Origin: Candidatus Saccharimonadales bacterium
GTDB taxonomy: Bacteria > Patescibacteriota > Saccharimonadia > Saccharimonadales > JACQNP01
Length of the DNA stretch: 64,000 bases
NCBI GenBank assembly: GCA_038257245.1
Contig: JBBSJL010000001.1
Span: 23,776 to 87,775 of the forward strand
Direction: 5' to 3'
This document shows positions 133 to 59,678 of the stretch, in pieces; the first letter of the stretch is position 1; every line of letters starts with the position of its first letter. A program made the position numbers and the translations under genes. The notes under the pieces were generated by a model. That model did no database searches. It was not told the DNA's origin and saw only the letters and a program-made list of their open reading frames with translations.

Positions 133-1212
133 ATGCTGGTAATTATAAAAAAAGTAAATGAACTTGACACAGAAGTGGCAGACGTTATGAGACGTCTGGA
201 CATTGAAGCCCTAAAACAAGAAGCAGAAGAACTAAAAATTCAGTCGCTCGGACAAGAGTTTTGGGCAGATAATATTAAAGCCCAAGAAGTCATGAAGAAG
301 ATTAGTAAGTTGGAATCTAGAATTCAACCATGGATTGAAATTGAAACTGAGCTTAGTGAGGTCAAAGAGCTCGCACAACTAAATGACGACAGCATTTCAC
401 CAGATCTTAAAAAACAATTAGCAAACATAAATAAAAAGCTTTTGGCATTAAAAAAAGAACTACAGTTTTCTGGTAAGTATGATGACCATGATGTAATTCT
501 AAGCATACATGCTGGGGCAGGCGGTACGGATGCCCAAGATTGGGCTCAAATGTTAATGCGTATGTATGTACGGTGGGCTGAATCGCATAATTACAAAGTC
601 ATTATGATAGATGAATCCTCTGGGGACGAGGCAGGTATAAAAAGTGTAACTTTGGAAATCGAAGGTAAATTTGTATTCGGTAAGCTTCAATATGAACATG
701 GGGTACATCGTTTAGTTAGGCTAAGTCCGTTTAACTCAGATAATCTACGCCAAACAAGTTTTGCGAAAGTAGAAATCATGCCAAAGGTGGATACACCCAA
801 CGAAGTCGAAATTGATGAAGGTGATCTAAAAATAGATGTGTATAGAAGTGGTGGTAAAGGAGGACAGTCTGTAAATACAACTGATTCGGCGGTGAGGGTA
901 ACCCATATACCAACAAAAACAGTAGTTGCGATTCAAAACGAACGTAGTCAAATTCAAAACAAAGAAACTGCTATGACAATATTGCGTTCGAGACTTGCTC
1001 AATTACAGATAGAACAGCATGCTGAAAAAGTATCAGAGCTAAAAGGTCCGAATCAATCAGCTGAGTGGGGCAACCAAATCCGTAGCTACGTACTACACCC
1101 GTATAAACAGGTCAAAGATCTGCGGTCTAAATACGAAACTAGCGATGCTGACGGTGTATTGGATGGCAAATTAGATGACCTAATTAATGCTAATCTAGAG
1201 AATAACCTTTAG
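133..1212 (+). CDS. prfB: peptide chain release factor 2
   Basis: 359-aa ORF with RF2-specific SPF tripeptide (LSPFNS) and GGQ motif (GGKGGQSVN). Collinear with RF2 from the N-terminus and uninterrupted. TGT-TATAAT extended -10 at 115-123. Confidence 0.95.
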   Translation: MLVIIKKVNELDTEVADVMRRLDIEALKQEAEELKIQSLGQEFWADNIKAQEVMKKISKLESRIQPWIEIETELSEVKELAQLNDDSISPDLKKQLANINKKLLALKKELQFSGKYDDHDVILSIHAGAGGTDAQDWAQMLMRMYVRWAESHNYKVIMIDESSGDEAGIKSVTLEIEGKFVFGKLQYEHGVHRLVRLSPFNSDNLRQTSFAKVEIMPKVDTPNEVEIDEGDLKIDVYRSGGKGGQSVNTTDSAVRVTHIPTKTVVAIQNERSQIQNKETAMTILRSRLAQLQIEQHAEKVSELKGPNQSAEWGNQIRSYVLHPYKQVKDLRSKYETSDADGVLDGKLDDLINANLENNL

Positions 1213-1234
1213 CTATTTGCTATAATAAAGACAT

Positions 1235-1915
1235 ATGATACTTCTGGATAGAGTTACAAAATCATACAGCCGCAGCGGTGCCGCTTTGGATCGAATAAGT
1301 TTGCATATTGAACCAAAAGAATTCGTTATTATTATTGGTAAAAGCGGAGCAGGTAAATCGACGCTACTAAAACTTTTAACCAGAGAAGAGAGACCAACTA
1401 GCGGCAAAATCGTGGTTGGTGGTGTGGATTACGACAAATTGAAAGATCGTGACATACCGCTATTAAGGCGAAAAATTGGGGTTGTTTTCCAAGACTTTAA
1501 ACTTCTTCCTAACAAGAATGTATTTGAAAACGTAGCGTTCGCATTGGAAATTGTCGGATATGGTAACAAAGAAATAAATCATACCGTGCCAAGGGTATTA
1601 GATATAGTAGGGTTAAAAGGCAAAGAAAAGCGTATGCCCTTGGAATTATCAGGTGGTGAGCGCCAACGGGTGGCTATTGCCAGGGCAATAGTACGCCAGC
1701 CAAAAATTCTTATTGCCGATGAGCCAACAGGCAATCTAGATCCAAAACATGCATGGGATGTAATTAAGGTGCTAGAAAAAATTAACCGCTATGGCACCAC
1801 TGTCCTTCTAACTACCCATAATCAGGATATCGTCAATAAGCTTAAACGCAGAGTCGTAGTTATAAATGACGGCAAAATCGAAAGCGATAGAGCTAACGCG
1901 GAGTACAAACACTAA
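1235..1915 (+). CDS. ftsE: cell-division ABC ATPase FtsE
   Basis: Walker A GKSGAGKST, ABC signature LSGGERQR, Walker B ILIADEPT. 226 aa, immediately upstream of an FtsX-type permease. Confidence 0.9.
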   Translation: MILLDRVTKSYSRSGAALDRISLHIEPKEFVIIIGKSGAGKSTLLKLLTREERPTSGKIVVGGVDYDKLKDRDIPLLRRKIGVVFQDFKLLPNKNVFENVAFALEIVGYGNKEINHTVPRVLDIVGLKGKEKRMPLELSGGERQRVAIARAIVRQPKILIADEPTGNLDPKHAWDVIKVLEKINRYGTTVLLTTHNQDIVNKLKRRVVVINDGKIESDRANAEYKH

Positions 1916-40409: not shown

Positions 40410-40595
40410 TTAGCTATTTCCCAGTCTGTACCCGGCCCAAATACCAAGAATGGCGCCAAAGGTACTAAAAAGTATCCCCCAAATACCGAATATGTTTCCG
40501 TGGTCTAAAACGCTGCCTAGCCATCCACCCGCAATAGAACCTATGCCGATGTCTATATATATGTATGTTTTCGTTTCCACAATTTTATAATACAC
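40410..40595 (-). CDS. small membrane protein (GlsB/YeaQ/YmgE-like)
   Basis: G-rich two-TM pattern (IGSIAGGWLGSVL...FGIWGILFSTFGAILGIWAGY). GTG start is uncertain. Confidence 0.4.
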   Translation of the reverse strand: MYYKIVETKTYIYIDIGIGSIAGGWLGSVLDHGNIFGIWGILFSTFGAILGIWAGYRLGNS

Positions 40596-40609
40596 CTAGT
40601 ACTGTGTTT

Positions 40610-41467
40610 CTAGTATCGTATCCAATGTCCAGATCCAGCAGGACGGATTTTTTTAGTTATTTCTAGCATAGTTAGGGTTTGGCTAAACTCTTGATTACCC
40701 AGCTTGCTTTTAATTAATAATTCTTCACCGTTTGTAATACCTTGGCTGAGGAGGTCTATGATTATTTGTTCTTGCCTGTTAGCGGCAAATATTTCTTTTT
40801 CTGTGGATATAGCTTCTAGCTCTAAGGCGTTCAAGATGTCTGTCGCCGAGGCTATGGGCACAGCACCCGTACTAATTAAGTTATTTGTACCTTCGCTTTG
40901 GGGACTATTTATATTACCTGGAACGGCCATGACGACTTTCCCTTGCTCTAGTGCGAAGTTTGCAGTATGAATTGTTCCGCTTAGTCGGCTTGCTTCAGTA
41001 ATTAATGTACCATCACCTAATCCCGCTACTAATCTGTTCCTAGCTATAAAGTTTTGCTTCAGTGCTGGCATTCCTGGTTCGTATTCGCTTAGTAGTAGAC
41101 CTCCACGCTCTAATATTCTAATTGCAAGGTTACGATGTGAGGACGGATAAATGTTATCCAGACCTGCCGGCAAAACAGCTATGGTCTCCCCTCCAGCATC
41201 TAGTGCAGCTTGATGCGCAATAGAGTCGACGCCCAGGGCTAGACCACTAATAATGACAACTCCATACCCAGCAACCTCATGCACTAGATTGGCAGTAACT
41301 TGTCTACCATAAGCAGTAACCTTGCGACTACCCACAACAGATAGAGTATATTTACGATTTAAGAGATCTGTATTACCAATTACGTAGAGTTTTTTAGGAG
41401 GCGACGGTATACAGGCCAAGCGGCTAGGGATATCGTTTTCTTTAAGCGTTAGCAAATTGACATTCAT
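40610..41467 (-). CDS. dprA: DNA-processing protein DprA
   Basis: 285 aa. Rossmann-like core (VVGSRKVTAYG..., ISGLALGVDSIAHQAAL, GGLLLSEY) and a C-terminal wHTH. The dprA-topA synteny is classic. Confidence 0.9.
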   Translation of the reverse strand: MNVNLLTLKENDIPSRLACIPSPPKKLYVIGNTDLLNRKYTLSVVGSRKVTAYGRQVTANLVHEVAGYGVVIISGLALGVDSIAHQAALDAGGETIAVLPAGLDNIYPSSHRNLAIRILERGGLLLSEYEPGMPALKQNFIARNRLVAGLGDGTLITEASRLSGTIHTANFALEQGKVVMAVPGNINSPQSEGTNNLISTGAVPIASATDILNALELEAISTEKEIFAANRQEQIIIDLLSQGITNGEELLIKSKLGNQEFSQTLTMLEITKKIRPAGSGHWIRY

Positions 41468-41486
41468 ACAAATATGTATTTAAGTA

Positions 41487-41515
41487 TTGACATAATGTCA
41501 TAAATTTGCTAGAAT
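41487..41515 (+). promoter_or_regulatory. near-consensus sigma-70 promoter
   Basis: TTGACA (41487-92), 17-nt spacer, TAGAAT (41510-15). No ORF follows for ~380 nt. Confidence 0.65.
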
Positions 41516-41521
41516 AGCAAC

Positions 41522-41878
41522 CTGTAAGTACGCTATATGCGTTCTTACGTACCTTACACCCCTATTCTAACAATATTGTTAGATTGTTTTAGAGCGTGCT
41601 GGCTTAAGTTGTTACCCTCCACTTATCTAGCTTTAATTCGCTTGCGAGTTAAAAACATGCGTTCTAAAACAAACTAACCCCTTTAAGACACCCCACGTCC
41701 GCGTGGGGACCCCTTCTCGTAAGGGTCCGTCCCGTTTAGAGTGAGTCTAGACGATTCCAGCTTGCTGGAGACACAGAGCTGTAACTTATTGGCTTCTGAT
41801 GTTTCACTGGGTGGGCTTAAAGGGTGTAAATGACCTCCAGCGGTGCCCACCCCCTCTGGAGGTCTTTTATATTTGTAA
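41522..41878 (+). ncRNA. candidate ~350-nt structured RNA of unknown family
   Basis: Bounded by a promoter and an intrinsic terminator. At least six hairpins were verified by eye (41524-48, 41566-83, 41586-93/41663-70, 41691-708, 41711-25, 41756-69). GGGTGGGC (41809-16) is complementary to the terminator loop GCCCACCC (41855-62). Confidence 0.45.
41842..41878 (+). terminator. intrinsic terminator
   Basis: GACCTCCAG (41842-50) / CTGGAGGTC (41866-74), 15-nt loop, then TTTT. Confidence 0.8.
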
Positions 41879-41900
41879 AAATTGTGCTATAATAATTGTA

Positions 41901-42125
41901 ATGAGTGATGACGGAGAAAAAGGTTTTGGTAGTGAATATGCGCAGGCTGTAGCTGCCCTGATTGAAGCTTCTGGATTTCAAAAAGATGGTAGTCATACAA
42001 CACCTGAAGCTGCCGCTAGTAGACGATCACTATTATCCATAACTGGTATACTAGCAAAATCACTAGGTGAAGTTACCTCACCCTTATATTTAGAGCCCCA
42101 AGAACCTAGTTCAGGAAGCTTCTAG
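41901..42125 (+). CDS. hypothetical 74-aa protein, possibly leaderless
   Basis: The ATG at 41901 lies 7 nt after an extended -10 (TGC-TATAAT, 41885-93). The longer ORF form from 41799 would run through the terminator. The 3' end overlaps pth convergently. Confidence 0.3.
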   Translation: MSDDGEKGFGSEYAQAVAALIEASGFQKDGSHTTPEAAASRRSLLSITGILAKSLGEVTSPLYLEPQEPSSGSF

Positions 42126-42756
42126 TCTCACTGACTAGACTGTTCCCATAGATATACTCGGTAACTAGTGCACTGACTTCGCGAGTTAGTAGATTTAAAC
42201 TAGACTGTTCTTCCTTAGAAAATTTTTGCAAAACGAAATCGGCACTGTCGATCTTAGCGGAATGGTCATTATCGATACCAATACGTACCCGTCCAGTTTT
42301 TTGTCCGGAGTCCTCGCCTAGTTGCTCAAGGATGGACTTTATACCGTTGTGCCCCGCTGAGCCACCACCAATTCTTGTTCTGATCTGACCAAAGGATATA
42401 TCAAGTTCATCGTGGATAATTATGGTGTCATCAGCTGTAATCTTATAAAAACTCATTACTGATTGAACAGCCTGACCACTGATATTCATAAAAGTTGTAG
42501 GTTTTATTAGAATAATTCGTTGATCACCGGCTTTGCCCACAGAAATTTCTGATTTCAAATCCTTTTTAGTTATCCAATCAGGCAGGTCAAGGGCTAAACG
42601 CAATTTATCGATACACATAAAACCTATATTGTGCCTCGTAAGATCGTATTCTTTGCCTATATTACCCAGTCCAATAATAAGAGTAGATTTCTGAAGCCCG
42701 ACAGTATAGAGGGGTGCTGATGTGCTGCTTTGAGGCTTTTTTTGAAACAATGCCAT
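42106..42756 (-). CDS. pth: peptidyl-tRNA hydrolase
   Basis: LIIGLGNIGKEYDLTRHNIGF N-terminal signature and GGGSAGHNGIKS motif. Confidence 0.95.
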   Translation of the reverse strand: MALFQKKPQSSTSAPLYTVGLQKSTLIIGLGNIGKEYDLTRHNIGFMCIDKLRLALDLPDWITKKDLKSEISVGKAGDQRIILIKPTTFMNISGQAVQSVMSFYKITADDTIIIHDELDISFGQIRTRIGGGSAGHNGIKSILEQLGEDSGQKTGRVRIGIDNDHSAKIDSADFVLQKFSKEEQSSLNLLTREVSALVTEYIYGNSLVSETRSFLN

Positions 42757-42788
42757 GGACTTAGGTTATAGGTAATAGATTGCAGTGT

Positions 42789-44180
42789 CTAGTCTTTGGT
42801 GGGACTTCGGCCGTGTTTGTGTGTAACGTGCTTTTCAAAAAACCACATTTTTATGGCTGTACCAGAAAACCCAAAGCTTTCTCGAAACTCACGTTCCAGA
42901 TATCGTTTATAAGACCAGTGCAAAAACTTTGTGTGAGATCCGTAGACCTTAAAATTGGTTGGATTCTGTTCTTCTTGAATCATGTAGTTCAGCTTTGGAG
43001 CCCGATTTTTTAGCCCGGCAGGTGGATGCTTTTCGGTTACGGTTTTGAGCCAGCGATTTAACTTGGCTGTAGTTACATGGGTTTTTTGGACTTCGTCGAT
43101 CTCGGTAACTATTTCGAATAGCTTGGTAACATTTTGGCCAGTTACAGCACTTGTGAATATTAGGCTTGCCCACGGCACAAAGTCGTAAATATGTTTGATC
43201 TGTGCGGCCATCTGGTCACGTGTGAAAGGTGTTTTGTCTTCCAGGCTGTCCCATTTGCTAACTACGAGCACCAGACCTTTATTAGCCTCCTTAATGGCAC
43301 CTGCTAGTTTTTGGTCTAAGGCTACACTAAGCTCGTTAGCATCCATAAGGAGTAAACAAACATCGGCTCGTTCTATAGCGCTAAGCGATCTGATTACACT
43401 AAAATGCTCGACTCCCCGCTCTATTTTCCCGTTACGGCGAATGCCTGCCGTGTCCATTATAATAATTTCTTTTTTGTTAAACATAACAGAAGTTTTGTTA
43501 ATGTCCCTTGTAGTTCCAGCTCTATCGGCTACGATCGCCTGCTGCTTCTTTACCAAGCTATTAAAAAGATATGACTTACCGACGTTTGGCCGACCGATCA
43601 ATGCAACTGATATCTGTTCTTCGGACTGTTTGAAGGTTGCTTCAGGTATTAGATCAATAGTTTGGCCTAGGAGTTCGTGAATGCCTCTGTTTTGGGTGGT
43701 GCTAGTTAAATATATATCTTTGATGCCAAGTTTTTGAAACTCTTTAGTGGTCGCCTTGTGGTTTTTATCTATCTTATTTACAATCAACAGAACTGGTTTT
43801 TTGGACTTTAGAGCCATCTTGGCAACTCTTCGATCTTCTTCTGTGATGATTGTGTCAGATTCAATCACAACCCATATTACATCTGCACTGTCGGATGCCT
43901 GTGTTATCTGTTCCTGGATCGTATATTCGAAGTCGTCCTCGGCGGTTTTTATGCCGGCCGTATCGACTAGCCAAAAATCTTGGTCATCGTAGCTGGCCTT
44001 TTCCCATATTGAATCGCGGGTTGTGCCGGCTTCTTGGGCGACAATTGCCTCTCGCTTTCGCAGGACAGAGTTAAAAAGGCTGGACTTGCCAACATTGGCC
44101 CGCCCAACAATCGCAATTATAGGTATAGAATTACTGCTCATACTTTCATTCATTATAACAGAGGTAAGGTATATTGACAA
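42789..44180 (-). CDS. der: ribosome-associated GTPase Der (EngA)
   Basis: Two tandem GTPase domains (GRANVGKSS / DTAG; GRPNVGKSY / DTAG) plus a C-terminal KH-like domain. The true start may be an internal Met (44153 or 44141). Confidence 0.95.
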   Translation of the reverse strand: MSIYLTSVIMNESMSSNSIPIIAIVGRANVGKSSLFNSVLRKREAIVAQEAGTTRDSIWEKASYDDQDFWLVDTAGIKTAEDDFEYTIQEQITQASDSADVIWVVIESDTIITEEDRRVAKMALKSKKPVLLIVNKIDKNHKATTKEFQKLGIKDIYLTSTTQNRGIHELLGQTIDLIPEATFKQSEEQISVALIGRPNVGKSYLFNSLVKKQQAIVADRAGTTRDINKTSVMFNKKEIIIMDTAGIRRNGKIERGVEHFSVIRSLSAIERADVCLLLMDANELSVALDQKLAGAIKEANKGLVLVVSKWDSLEDKTPFTRDQMAAQIKHIYDFVPWASLIFTSAVTGQNVTKLFEIVTEIDEVQKTHVTTAKLNRWLKTVTEKHPPAGLKNRAPKLNYMIQEEQNPTNFKVYGSHTKFLHWSYKRYLEREFRESFGFSGTAIKMWFFEKHVTHKHGRSPTKD

Positions 44181-48613: not shown

Positions 48614-48689
48614 GGTCCCGTCGTCTAGTGGTTAGGATATCTGGTTCTCATCCAGAAGATCGCGGGTTCGAATCCCGCCGGGATCACCA
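48614..48689 (+). tRNA. tRNA-Glu (anticodon CUC), CCA encoded
   Basis: Cloverleaf folded by hand: acceptor GGTCCCG/CGGGATC, D-arm GTCT..AGGA, anticodon stem TCTGG/CCAGA with loop TTCTCAT, T-arm GCGGG-TTCGAAT-CCCGC, then A-CCA. Confidence 0.9.
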
Positions 48690-58379: not shown

Positions 58380-59678
58380 CTAAGGCGTAAAGCCAACTGA
58401 CCCATCTAGTTCAACCGCGCTGATCCAAGTATTGCCTCTATTTAGAGGGATCACAGCTTCATTAGCTGCTTTAAATATCATAGGGCTTTTGCGGTCTTTT
58501 TTCTCCCATTTGCCAACTGTGACTGTGCCATCTTGAAAAATAAAGGCCTTCCCACTTCCACTGGTGCCGTAGATTGTATGCACACCATCGGGGTGAATAC
58601 TCTTTGGCATGATTGCGGCAATAACTACTTTTGGCGTAATTTGTTGTCCGGTTTTTTCATCTACATGGGGTTTGCCCGCTTGGCTGCGCACATATGAGTT
58701 GGTCGTTACATCATAGTCGTAGTGTGGGTTATATAAAAAACTAGATATGTTGAAATCAATCGTTTTGGCATTCGGTGTTGCTATTGGAGAGTCGTCTTTG
58801 CGCCCCCAGCCAGTAAAAGTGCTAGTACTCCAATCTTTAGAGTTTTGTAACTCCAATAGTTTGGCACGGCTCGTATAAACATTATGAGGTGCATAACGGT
58901 TACTAACTCGCTGATAGTAGTTACTGTTAAACCCATAGTCTAGGTCTTTTAAACCTTCGTTTCGAATTTGTGCTAATGCTTCAGCGCTTCCCCCAACATG
59001 GGCTACCGGGGCGTCAAAAGGCACTAACCAATCAAGGTAATATGGCCGTACGCTTCTAATTGGTCCAATATATTCAGGCTGAGATTCTTGAAATAAAGTC
59101 AGGAACCGCGTAATACCACCTTCTGCTACGGCTTCGTATACCACCCCAGCGTCTTTTAACCCTGCTTGTGGCCTAGCATCTGGGCTGTTTTCTATCATTA
59201 CTGCTGTTACTGGCAGAGCTGATTCGGATTCAGTAACCTTTGCCCCTGTTAGATTTGAATTAAATACTTTAGGTTTAGGGGGTACTACAACTTCTACAAC
59301 TTCCACCGATTCCACGGGCTTAGGTTTATGTGTTAGCTTCCAAACAAGAAGACTTACACCGATTAGTACTAACGCCGATACGATACCTATTATGATCCAT
59401 TGTTTTTTGGATAAATCAGGCAGCCTGAATCTACCCTTGCCCTTTTTACTGTGTTTACCTTTGGGTTCAAAGTCTATTTTTTTGGGAGTTGGTGTCTTTA
59501 TCGGTTCCGGATTAGGAGCAGTTGCTTCGTTGGAAAATTGGCTAACAGAGTAGGATTTATCAACGTCTTCAGGGGGCCGAAAGTCAGGTTCTGCTATGTC
59601 GTTACTCTCTGTTTGTTCTAGGTCATCTCTAGAGCCATCCGGATTATTTGACCCCGGGGCAGCAAAATCATCAATCAT
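58380..59678 (-). CDS. membrane-anchored DUF3048-family protein
   Basis: 432 aa. Acidic/basic N-terminus, one TM helix, then MIENSPDARPQAGLKDAGVVYEAVAEGGITRFLTLF, typical of DUF3048 (YerB-like). Confidence 0.7.
   Translation of the reverse strand: MIDDFAAPGSNNPDGSRDDLEQTESNDIAEPDFRPPEDVDKSYSVSQFSNEATAPNPEPIKTPTPKKIDFEPKGKHSKKGKGRFRLPDLSKKQWIIIGIVSALVLIGVSLLVWKLTHKPKPVESVEVVEVVVPPKPKVFNSNLTGAKVTESESALPVTAVMIENSPDARPQAGLKDAGVVYEAVAEGGITRFLTLFQESQPEYIGPIRSVRPYYLDWLVPFDAPVAHVGGSAEALAQIRNEGLKDLDYGFNSNYYQRVSNRYAPHNVYTSRAKLLELQNSKDWSTSTFTGWGRKDDSPIATPNAKTIDFNISSFLYNPHYDYDVTTNSYVRSQAGKPHVDEKTGQQITPKVVIAAIMPKSIHPDGVHTIYGTSGSGKAFIFQDGTVTVGKWEKKDRKSPMIFKAANEAVIPLNRGNTWISAVELDGSVGFTP

Follow-up and report, generated by a model that had tools for sequence, protein, structure and literature searches.

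The window analysed here, a stretch of 64,000 nucleotides, comes from a genome of the Saccharibacteria (TM7, candidate phyla radiation). A gene for a structured RNA of about 350 nt is located on its forward strand between the ORFs of DprA and peptidyl-tRNA hydrolase (pth), and Der/EngA and topoisomerase I are found among the further neighbouring ORFs. The closest relatives of this DprA are Saccharibacteria proteins, with an identity of 69% or less when the self-match of the query is excepted. The features of the locus are as follows.

40610-41467, minus strand: DprA, ORF adjoining the RNA gene
41487-41515, plus strand: promoter, with -35 TTGACA (41487-92), a 17-nt spacer and extended -10 TGcTAGAAT (41507-15)
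41521-41869, plus strand: RNA gene, about 350 nt, running from the inferred transcription start through the terminator T-run
41832-41868, plus strand: intrinsic terminator, 9-bp stem 41832-40/41856-64 followed by UUUU (41865-68)
41840-56, plus strand: terminator loop motif, 17 nt, GCGGUGCCCACCCCCUC, consisting of the closing G-C pair and the 15-nt loop 41841-55
41885-42125, plus strand: extended -10 (41885-93) and orphan 74-aa ORF, outside the RNA
42106-42756, minus strand: peptidyl-tRNA hydrolase (pth), ORF adjoining the RNA gene

Promoter, terminator and coding potential

The promoter of the RNA gene is divergent from dprA, and 20 nt separate it from the dprA start codon. It scores 11/12 with the TG extension and is the top promoter-like site within 40500-43000. 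Transcription is inferred from the sequence alone to start at about 41521-41523; both transcript ends are inferred, and no expression data support them. At the other end of the unit, the strands GACCTCCAG (41832-40) and CTGGAGGTC (41856-64) form the terminator stem. The terminator scanner missed this hairpin solely through its loop limit of 8, as the loop here has 15 nt. The G+C-rich stem and the U-run at the end of the unit meet the criteria of an intrinsic terminator, and the invariant 15-nt loop is atypical.

The sense strand of 41487-41878 contains no credible ORF. The longest one inside the interval has 46 aa, and its ATG is located in a variable loop. The minimum free energy of the RNA is -135.1 kcal/mol, compared with -90.6 +/- 5.4 kcal/mol in dinucleotide shuffles (z = -8.3), whereas the opposite strand gives z = -4.2. 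The RNA strand is also favoured by U.G pairs in the long-range helix P_A and in the stems. An earlier note had described a near-consensus promoter and a terminator bracketing about 350 nt without a credible ORF, and this description held. Its statement that G+C-rich helices lie in an A+T-rich background is only modestly supported, as the G+C content is 0.48 in the RNA interval and about 0.37-0.44 in the flanks. It had also considered the RNA as a leader of the 74-aa ORF. This ORF (41901-42125, plus strand) overlaps the 3' end of pth and is preceded by its own extended -10. No Pfam family was found for it, and a tblastn search over 200 related loci detected no homolog. The leader reading is thus not supported.

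The use of Shine-Dalgarno (SD) sequences appears to be low in this genome, as 40/56 mechanically called genes have no SD-like motif. Several genes show a TATAAT-like -10 just 5' of the start codon, which suggests that their leaders are very short or absent.

Homologs in Saccharibacteria

Eighty species-representative Saccharibacteria loci were gathered via DprA alignment, and nhmmer was run with the single sequence from the window as the query. Homologs were detected in 74 of the 80 loci, immediately 5' of dprA and in the opposite orientation to it, with E values down to 6e-43, and 64 of the 74 are single full-length matches. As to the remaining six loci, three have no upstream sequence, and three (L048, L055 and L075) contain divergent short forms that were recognized by eye. 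The homologs are 283-660 nt long (median about 400), and the short form of L048 has about 190 nt. The RNA appears to be single-copy.

The promoter TTGACA-N17-TGCTA(A/G)AAT is kept in nearly all homologs, and so is the T-run of the terminator. Between them, the conservation is block-wise: near-invariant loops and junctions alternate with stems that vary in sequence and with regions that vary in length. About 70 nucleotides are nearly invariant, and they are concentrated in the junctions and loops. The length changes between homologs are not multiples of three.

The gene order around the RNA in the Saccharibacteria homolog loci is der-pth-RNA-dprA-topA. The convergent pth is the next gene in most genomes and abuts the terminator in many of them. 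A second sample was anchored on the RNA itself, by picking metagenome contigs with a 19-mer of the hairpin Ha (see below). According to the 102 loci with enough flank, dprA is adjacent in 82 loci and is not adjacent in 20. Ten dprA-less loci were examined, and in most of them the RNA is flanked by topA on its upstream side and by pth on its downstream side. A functional link to dprA, one of the candidates considered, is weakened by this persistence of the RNA in dprA-less loci. Very likely, essentially every member of the Saccharimonadia (Saccharibacteria/TM7, part of the candidate phyla radiation) carries the RNA.

Fold of the RNA

The fold was derived by comparison of the homologs, and pairs were counted on the 64-sequence alignment with the refined structure model. 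The elements are listed below from 5' to 3'.

41523-41549, plus strand: H1, 5' hairpin, outer 6 bp 41523-28/41544-49, 84% paired, apical part variable
41550-41565, plus strand: conserved C-rich single-stranded linker, consensus ACCUUAUACCCCCAUU
41566-41583, plus strand: H2 hairpin, UCUAACA/UGUUAGA, conserved in sequence
41584-97/41659-72, plus strand: H3, 14 bp, closing a three-way junction (41584-41672), 93% paired
41605-41625, plus strand: Ha hairpin, near-invariant 11-nt loop UGUUACCCUCC (41610-20)
41673-41687, plus strand: junction ACUAAC and the 5' strand of P_A, CCCUUUAAG (41679-87)
41679-87/41816-24, plus strand: P_A, long-range helix, 98% paired
41688-41739, plus strand: variable region with two hairpins (41691-708 and 41711-25), where homologs differ widely in length and sequence
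41740-41808, plus strand: central domain, closed by P_B and containing Hb and P_C
41740-44/41804-08, plus strand: P_B, 86% paired, several pairs changed on both sides
41756-60/41765-69, plus strand: Hb hairpin, 83% paired, several pairs changed on both sides
41770-76/41796-41803, plus strand: P_C, 86-97% paired, several pairs changed on both sides
41809-41824, plus strand: G-tract GGGUGGG (41809-15), followed by the 3' strand of P_A, CUUAAAGGG (41816-24)

Standard pairs are present in 92.1% of the cells, compared with 81.2% in column shuffles, and none of 500 shuffles reaches the observed value. When the 3' partner was slid by one to three columns as a control, only 36-47% were paired. Cells changed on both sides number 437, compared with 137 in the shuffles, and 41/65 pairs are affected. 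Compensatory changes were observed in ten helices. Double-sided changes are found in 4/6 pairs of H1, in 11/14 pairs of H3 and in 8/9 pairs of the terminator stem, which is 98% paired. The closing pair of P_A is C-G in 57 sequences and G-C in 4, and further compensated variants of P_A are present in L048, L093 and L133. RNAalifold, run independently on 18 sequences, recovered H3, P_A, P_C and the terminator.

The 3' strand of H2, GUUAG (41578-82), is able to pair alternatively with CUAAC (41674-78), and H3 is then lengthened. Each of the two pairings is satisfied in more than 90%, and RNAalifold prefers the H3 extension. The 5' strand CUAAC of H2 is absent or altered in 21/64 homologs; most of these retain GUUAG, and 15 also retain the downstream CUAAC. 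Since the 5' strand is so often lost or altered, H2 and the H3 extension may possibly be alternative pairings. As for the linker 41550-41565, no pairing partner was found. A pairing of 41553-60 with 41822-29, proposed in the course of the analysis, had poor support across the homologs and was dropped.

The invariant loops are C-rich. ACCCTCC of the Ha loop is invariant in the 64 sequences, and the divergent L048 has AUCACCCUCCUUA at this loop. The terminator loop is identical in about 170 homologs. The G-tract GGGUGGG (41809-15) is complementary to CCCACCC (41846-52) in the terminator loop, and its core GGUGG is invariant across about 180 homologs. Both strands are invariant, and therefore covariation cannot test this pairing. 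In L048, the most divergent form, both strands are missing together. Four other loci (L093, L133, L104 and L157) have no G-tract beside P_A, but contain GUGGG upstream of P_B. An H-type pseudoknot between the G-tract and the terminator loop is thus plausible, with indirect support from L048 and from the GUGGG upstream of P_B; we consider it likely, and it remains unproven without covariation.

All six helices listed in the earlier note are present in the sequence. Three of them (41524-48, 41586-93/41663-70 and 41756-69) held and are conserved with compensatory changes, and 41586-93/41663-70 is part of the 14-bp helix 41584-97/41659-72. The helix 41566-83 held in part, as its sequence is conserved and its 3' strand can pair with 41674-78 instead. 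The helices 41691-708 and 41711-25 exist, but they are located inside the lineage-variable region. The note had also proposed the pseudoknot, between GGGTGGGC at 41809-16 and the loop strand GCCCACCC at 41855-62. The position of the former is correct, and that of the latter is wrong by 10 (correctly 41845-52). The two strands are conserved but invariant, and the claim is unproven. P_A, P_B, P_C and the invariant Ha loop had been missed. The central claim of the note, a discrete structured transcript from promoter to terminator of unassigned family, is supported by the conservation, by the covariation and by the absence of an Rfam or ARAGORN assignment.

Search for known RNA families

With Rfam 15 at gathering thresholds, no RNA family matched, neither in the window nor in 16 homologous loci. 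Rfam searches at gathering thresholds and at E <= 10, covering the window, the 16 loci, the divergent homolog L070 and 14 viral loci, gave only tRNAs and miRNA/snoRNA noise. ARAGORN detected no tmRNA in the window or in the 16 loci. The comparison with housekeeping RNAs in the earlier note fits the ubiquity and the strong promoter, and membership in none of these families could be shown.

None of the candidate families was supported. RNase P RNA (RF00010/RF00011) gave no match at gathering thresholds or at E <= 10 in the window (41350-42150) and in L070, and no match at gathering thresholds in the 16 homologous loci. Its core motifs, GGAAAGUCC (5') and ACAGAA..GGCUUA (3'), are absent from the conserved blocks. 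In place of a P1 helix, the ends of the RNA are the 5' hairpin and the terminator, and short forms of about 190 nt exist. For tmRNA, there is neither an ARAGORN nor an Rfam match, and no tRNA-like ends are present. 6S RNA had no Rfam match; the covariation-supported fold is multi-domain with long-range helices, and is not a rod with a central bubble. SRP RNA also had no Rfam match, and its domain IV motif is missing among the conserved blocks. The raiA motif RNA (RF03072) was not matched. A riboswitch or cis leader was rejected, since conservation is lacking for the downstream ORF and pth, which comes next, is convergent. A type II CRISPR tracrRNA was considered on account of the H3 start GUUUUAGAGC and was rejected, as neither an array nor a cas gene was found. 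The window contains no tandem repeats, GUUUUAGAGC occurs in it once, and the neighbours are dprA and pth. A search of the window for SD-type targets of the loop gave nothing convincing.

The RNA was not found to be described in the literature searched, where Weinberg 2017 lists only a lysM-TM7 motif. As RNase P RNAs of the candidate phyla radiation fall below the Rfam cut-offs (PMC8172020), a very divergent housekeeping RNA is not formally excluded. Very probably, the RNA gene is a stand-alone, structured, class-wide noncoding RNA (ncRNA) gene of a family outside Rfam.

Copies of the terminator hairpin in viral contigs

The 17-mer GCGGTGCCCACCCCCTC (41840-56) has exact matches in 53 viral contigs of IMG/VR, while about 4 are expected by chance. 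This chance level was calibrated by a 15-mer (71 matches) and a 14-mer (more than 120 matches) from other conserved blocks, and the similarity extends beyond the word itself in none of these matches. Viral matches to GGTGGGTTGAAGGG and ACTAACCCCTTTAAC showed no extended similarity; they are attributed to chance and were used as background controls. A 17-mer of the Ha loop also had viral matches, 14/18 of them from one low-GC phage family, and these are consistent with chance. In this family, the reverse complement of the Ha-loop 17-mer is a ribosome-binding site.

The motif is a hairpin loop with a stem of at least 6 bp in 45/54 viral copies. The viral stem sequences are unrelated to one another and to the host stems. 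In the stems of 49 distinct viral hairpins, 35 G.U oppositions were counted vs. 11 A.C oppositions. This excess of G.U over A.C indicates that selection acts on RNA of the motif strand. In one phage family, the hairpin is located between the portal gene and a scaffold-like gene without a T-run. A phage portal protein had no match among GenBank phages. In other viral contigs, the hairpins are terminators with T-runs, or they lie directly after a promoter or between tRNA-like genes. Portal, capsid, terminase and amidase genes are found near the viral hairpins, and no integrase gene was found there. Several copies are located within 1 kb of contig ends.

The viral matches cover only the last 30-65 nt of the RNA gene, with the exception of L218, where the whole RNA gene is located beside RecT- and FtsK-like genes. 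L218 is the only link of such a viral element to a Saccharibacteria genome, and no host has been established for the viral contigs. The Saccharibacteria loci, 1.35 Mb in total, contain the 17-mer only inside the RNA gene. All viral copies but one have no G-tract within 200 nt. Given such copies without a nearby G-tract, the loop may never need the pseudoknot.

Proposed role and alternative explanations

Our overall reading is an independent ncRNA gene of an uncatalogued family that acts in trans via its invariant loops, and we give it a probability of roughly 0.55. In the fold that covariation supports, the RNA begins with the 5' hairpin, followed by a long helix that is capped by a junction displaying the invariant C-rich, anti-Shine-Dalgarno-like loop. 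P_A encloses the variable central domain, and the terminator hairpin presents its invariant 15-nt C-rich loop. The G-tract beside P_A is inferred to pair with this loop in the H-type pseudoknot. The RNA would act in trans and not on a neighbouring gene. Its invariant loops would contact a conserved partner in the cell, which may be a protein or else a G-rich RNA; no partner has been identified. Phages have this loop on stems of their own, and for that reason the terminator-loop hairpin is read as a module that is sufficient by itself for recognition. The phage loop may serve to reach the same partner, to recruit it or to titrate it, or it may pair with the G-tract of the RNA. The action in trans through the C-rich loops, with the terminator hairpin as an autonomous module copied by phages, is an inference that could equally well prove wrong.

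A more specific guess concerns translation. Both invariant loops resemble the 16S anti-Shine-Dalgarno sequence CACCUCCU, the Ha loop with UUACCCUCCAC (in L048, AUCACCCUCCUUA) and the terminator loop with CCCACCCCCUC. The resemblance is one of sequence only, and the window does not include the 16S 3' end of the organism. From these loops and from the precedent of OLE RNA and bS21, a link to translation may be proposed, but this is a weak analogy and we consider it unlikely. Models in which SD sequences are sequestered are weakened because SD motifs look uncommon and leaderless genes frequent in the genome. A bolder reading, which is no more than possible, is a contest of RNA mimicry, in which the phage copies of the loop would capture or neutralize the RNA (via its G-tract) or its protein partner. 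If this is true, the RNA would belong to an essential or defensive pathway specific to the radiation.

Several other explanations should be weighed against the trans-acting RNA with invariant contact loops. The RNA could be an antisense regulator in trans, in which the G-tract GGGGUGGG is a seed that pairs with CCCACCCC loops in targets, those of phages included. The terminator loop of the RNA itself might then be a built-in mimic that masks the seed. No conserved sequence other than the G-tract was found anywhere to complement the phage loop, cis partners are lacking at the phage hairpins, and a kissing pair would comprise 7-8 G-C-rich bp. The intramolecular pseudoknot, however, should beat pairing in trans, the 1.35 Mb of Saccharibacteria loci yielded no host target with the loop apart from the RNA gene, and the other invariant blocks are unexplained. 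The antisense regulator, including the built-in mimic, is conceivable and not favoured. A highly divergent housekeeping RNA (a 6S-like RNA-polymerase binder, RNase P, SRP or tmRNA) would account for the ubiquity, the apparently single copy and the strong promoter. Rfam thresholds can fail to capture the RNase P RNAs of the radiation (PMC8172020), and the NCBI pipeline annotates just 2 ncRNAs in a Nanosynbacter genome (PMC8830319). This explanation is improbable, as no family matched at E <= 10 in the window and L070, ARAGORN gave no tmRNA, and tRNA-like ends, the GGAAAGUCC/ACAGAA core and the SRP domain IV motif are all missing from the RNA. The multi-domain fold is also not the rod of 6S RNA, and the short forms have only about 190 nt.

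The about 70 near-invariant nucleotides in junctions and loops, the long-range helices and the likely pseudoknot would also suit a trans-acting ribozyme or ligand sensor, whose junctions and pseudoknot form an active site or pocket; the complexity is like that of raiA and OLE RNA. There is no likeness to Rfam ribozyme or riboswitch classes, and no gene set points to a ligand, so that we hold this very unlikely. Also very unlikely is the explanation that the 3' hairpin is an attB site and the viral copies are attP, which would make the gene an integration target like the tRNA and tmRNA genes. It is suggested by the restriction of the viral similarity to the last 30-65 nt and by several copies less than 1 kb from contig ends. 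The stems, however, differ from the host and from each other, no integrase is nearby, G.U pairs are in excess, and many viral copies are located between structural genes without a T-run. It can almost be ruled out that the RNA controls the 74-aa ORF in cis, as a leader or riboswitch, or that it is a regulator linked to dprA. A terminator with an alternative pairing resembles an expression platform, and the promoter diverges from dprA at 20 nt from its start codon. The ORF, however, is not conserved and has its own promoter, and the convergent pth comes next in most genomes. The RNA also persists where dprA is absent, and synteny contradicts the explanation as a whole.

Relation to known systems

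Within the candidate phyla radiation, the Saccharibacteria have been studied best; they are tiny and live attached to other bacteria. Validation is nevertheless lacking for any small or structured RNA of Saccharibacteria, and a preprint on the TM7x transcriptome states this for small RNAs (bioRxiv 10.1101/2022.03.25.485537). An RNA that occurs class-wide and keeps about 70 nucleotides invariant, in genomes of less than 1 Mb, is very likely to be important. The hairpin shared with phages gives a concrete handle for a search for the partner, and cultured Saccharibacteria strains are transformable (PMC10633639). A well-defined family that current annotation tools miss in thousands of metagenome-assembled genomes is added.

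RNase P RNAs of the candidate phyla radiation are housekeeping RNAs of about 350 nt that are missed by standard Rfam thresholds (PMC8172020). These RNAs, however, retain the P4 core and are still picked up by RF00010 at low thresholds (PMC8172020), whereas the RNA described here has no RF00010 match at E <= 10 and is without the core motifs. Short hairpins that are recognized by a factor and occur both in host RNA and in phage transcripts are known from lambda nut boxB/rrn antitermination and from phage mimics of CRISPR repeats. In contrast to these, the conserved part here is a 15-nt loop on freely varying stems, and the hairpin of the host serves as terminator for a large ncRNA. Invariant C-rich hairpin loops are shared with RsaE/RoxS and the actinobacterial 6C RNAs. 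Those RNAs are simple hairpins of 60-120 nt, and their loops pair with G-rich or SD regions of targets. The present RNA differs in its size of 190-660 nt with long-range helices, in the low SD use and in that no targets were found.

OLE RNA is an elaborate ncRNA of about 600 nt from Bacillota, with a link to the oap genes. It contains a mimic of the 16S anti-Shine-Dalgarno sequence that is paired to an SD-like strand and is bound by bS21 (PMC12054373). The present RNA shows a resemblance to CACCUCCU in two of its invariant loops (UUACCCUCCAC and CCCACCCCCUC), one of which can pair with a G-rich strand. There is, however, no sequence or Rfam similarity between the two RNAs, and bS21 is linked to the present RNA by resemblance only, without binding data. 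The raiA motif (RF03072) is likewise a single-copy, stand-alone structured ncRNA of the abundant type, with several covarying helices, pseudoknots and dozens of invariant nucleotides (PMC10861870). It adjoins comFC, a competence gene, and what it does biochemically is not known (PMC10861870). A search across all GTDB species recovered raiA from Bacillota and Actinomycetota only (PMC10861870). Its helices and conserved sequences are unlike those of the RNA described here, and it is usually without a terminator stem that has a conserved loop. Although raiA and OLE are its closest analogues in kind, the RNA described here is a member of neither family.

Possible modularity and size of the RNA

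The 5' module of the structured RNA is found alone in short RNA-like units, in a context other than that of the RNA gene:
L090:~1100-1300 (-), short unit
L210:4640-4830 (-), short unit that has both a promoter (TGCTAGAAT) and a terminator of its own
In both units, the ACCUU..CCCC linker is followed by a helix, at the tip of which sits the ACCCUCC-loop hairpin. These units suggest that the RNA is modular. Structured insertions of 100-250 nt are also observed at fixed positions in some homologues, resulting in RNAs of up to ~660 nt:
between the helix H3 and the long-range helix P_A: L005, L006, L040
after P_A: L074, L078

The 5' strand of H3 (window 41584-41597) starts with GUUUUAGAGC, with which type II-A CRISPR repeats also begin. 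As neither a CRISPR array nor a cas gene is present in the window, this likeness was taken as a coincidence.

Gene starts and the neighbouring ORF

An SD-like motif is absent from 40 of the 56 mechanically called genes in the whole window, and a TATAAT-like -10 is located directly upstream of the start codon in several genes. These -10 elements suggest that the leaders are very short or absent. Example starts from this whole-window survey are as follows:
133, 1235, 10864, 17661, 29825, 31617, 58380-59678
The only Rfam or ARAGORN match across the 64-kb window is a tRNA-Glu (CUC) at 48614-48689. Next to the RNA gene, the following feature is present:
41885-42125, extended -10 followed, after 8 nt, by the ATG of a 74-aa orphan ORF
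This ORF is likely leaderless, and overlaps the 3' end of pth (peptidyl-tRNA hydrolase gene) by 20 nt. A search of 200 related loci returned no homologue, and the ORF matches no Pfam family.

Matches in viral contigs

The reverse complement of the 17-mer of hairpin Ha (AAGUGGAGGGUAACAAC) forms the ribosome-binding site of a tail-like gene, directly ahead of its ATG, in the viral loci L201-L209 and L211-L215. As a target of the Ha loop, this site is perfect over all 17 nt. All these loci belong to a single low-GC viral family; the match represents only one independent event, and could have arisen by chance.

The terminator loop of the RNA (window 41840-41856) is exactly GCGGUGCCCACCCCCUC, and the same sequence is a hairpin loop in 53 phage contigs. 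The stems under the loop are unrelated in sequence, and the placements are intergenic, promoter-proximal or at terminators. Examples among the viral contigs L219-L270 are:
L252:5183-5199
L221:2332-2348
L256:3793-3809

In one contig classed as viral, the RNA gene itself is complete:
L218:5738-8372, RNA gene with RecT- and FtsK-like genes beside it, in the usual place of dprA
L218:6863-6879, where the loop hairpin occurs a second time, on the other strand
L218 may represent a mobile element that has inserted next to this gene.

In the phage contigs L240 (9250-9800, -) and L241, the loop hairpin has the 3' half of a tRNA on one side and the 5' half of a tRNA on the other. These halves were called by neither ARAGORN nor Rfam. 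Intron-containing tRNA genes are reported for Patescibacteria (PMC13011429), and the halves are possibly genes of this kind.
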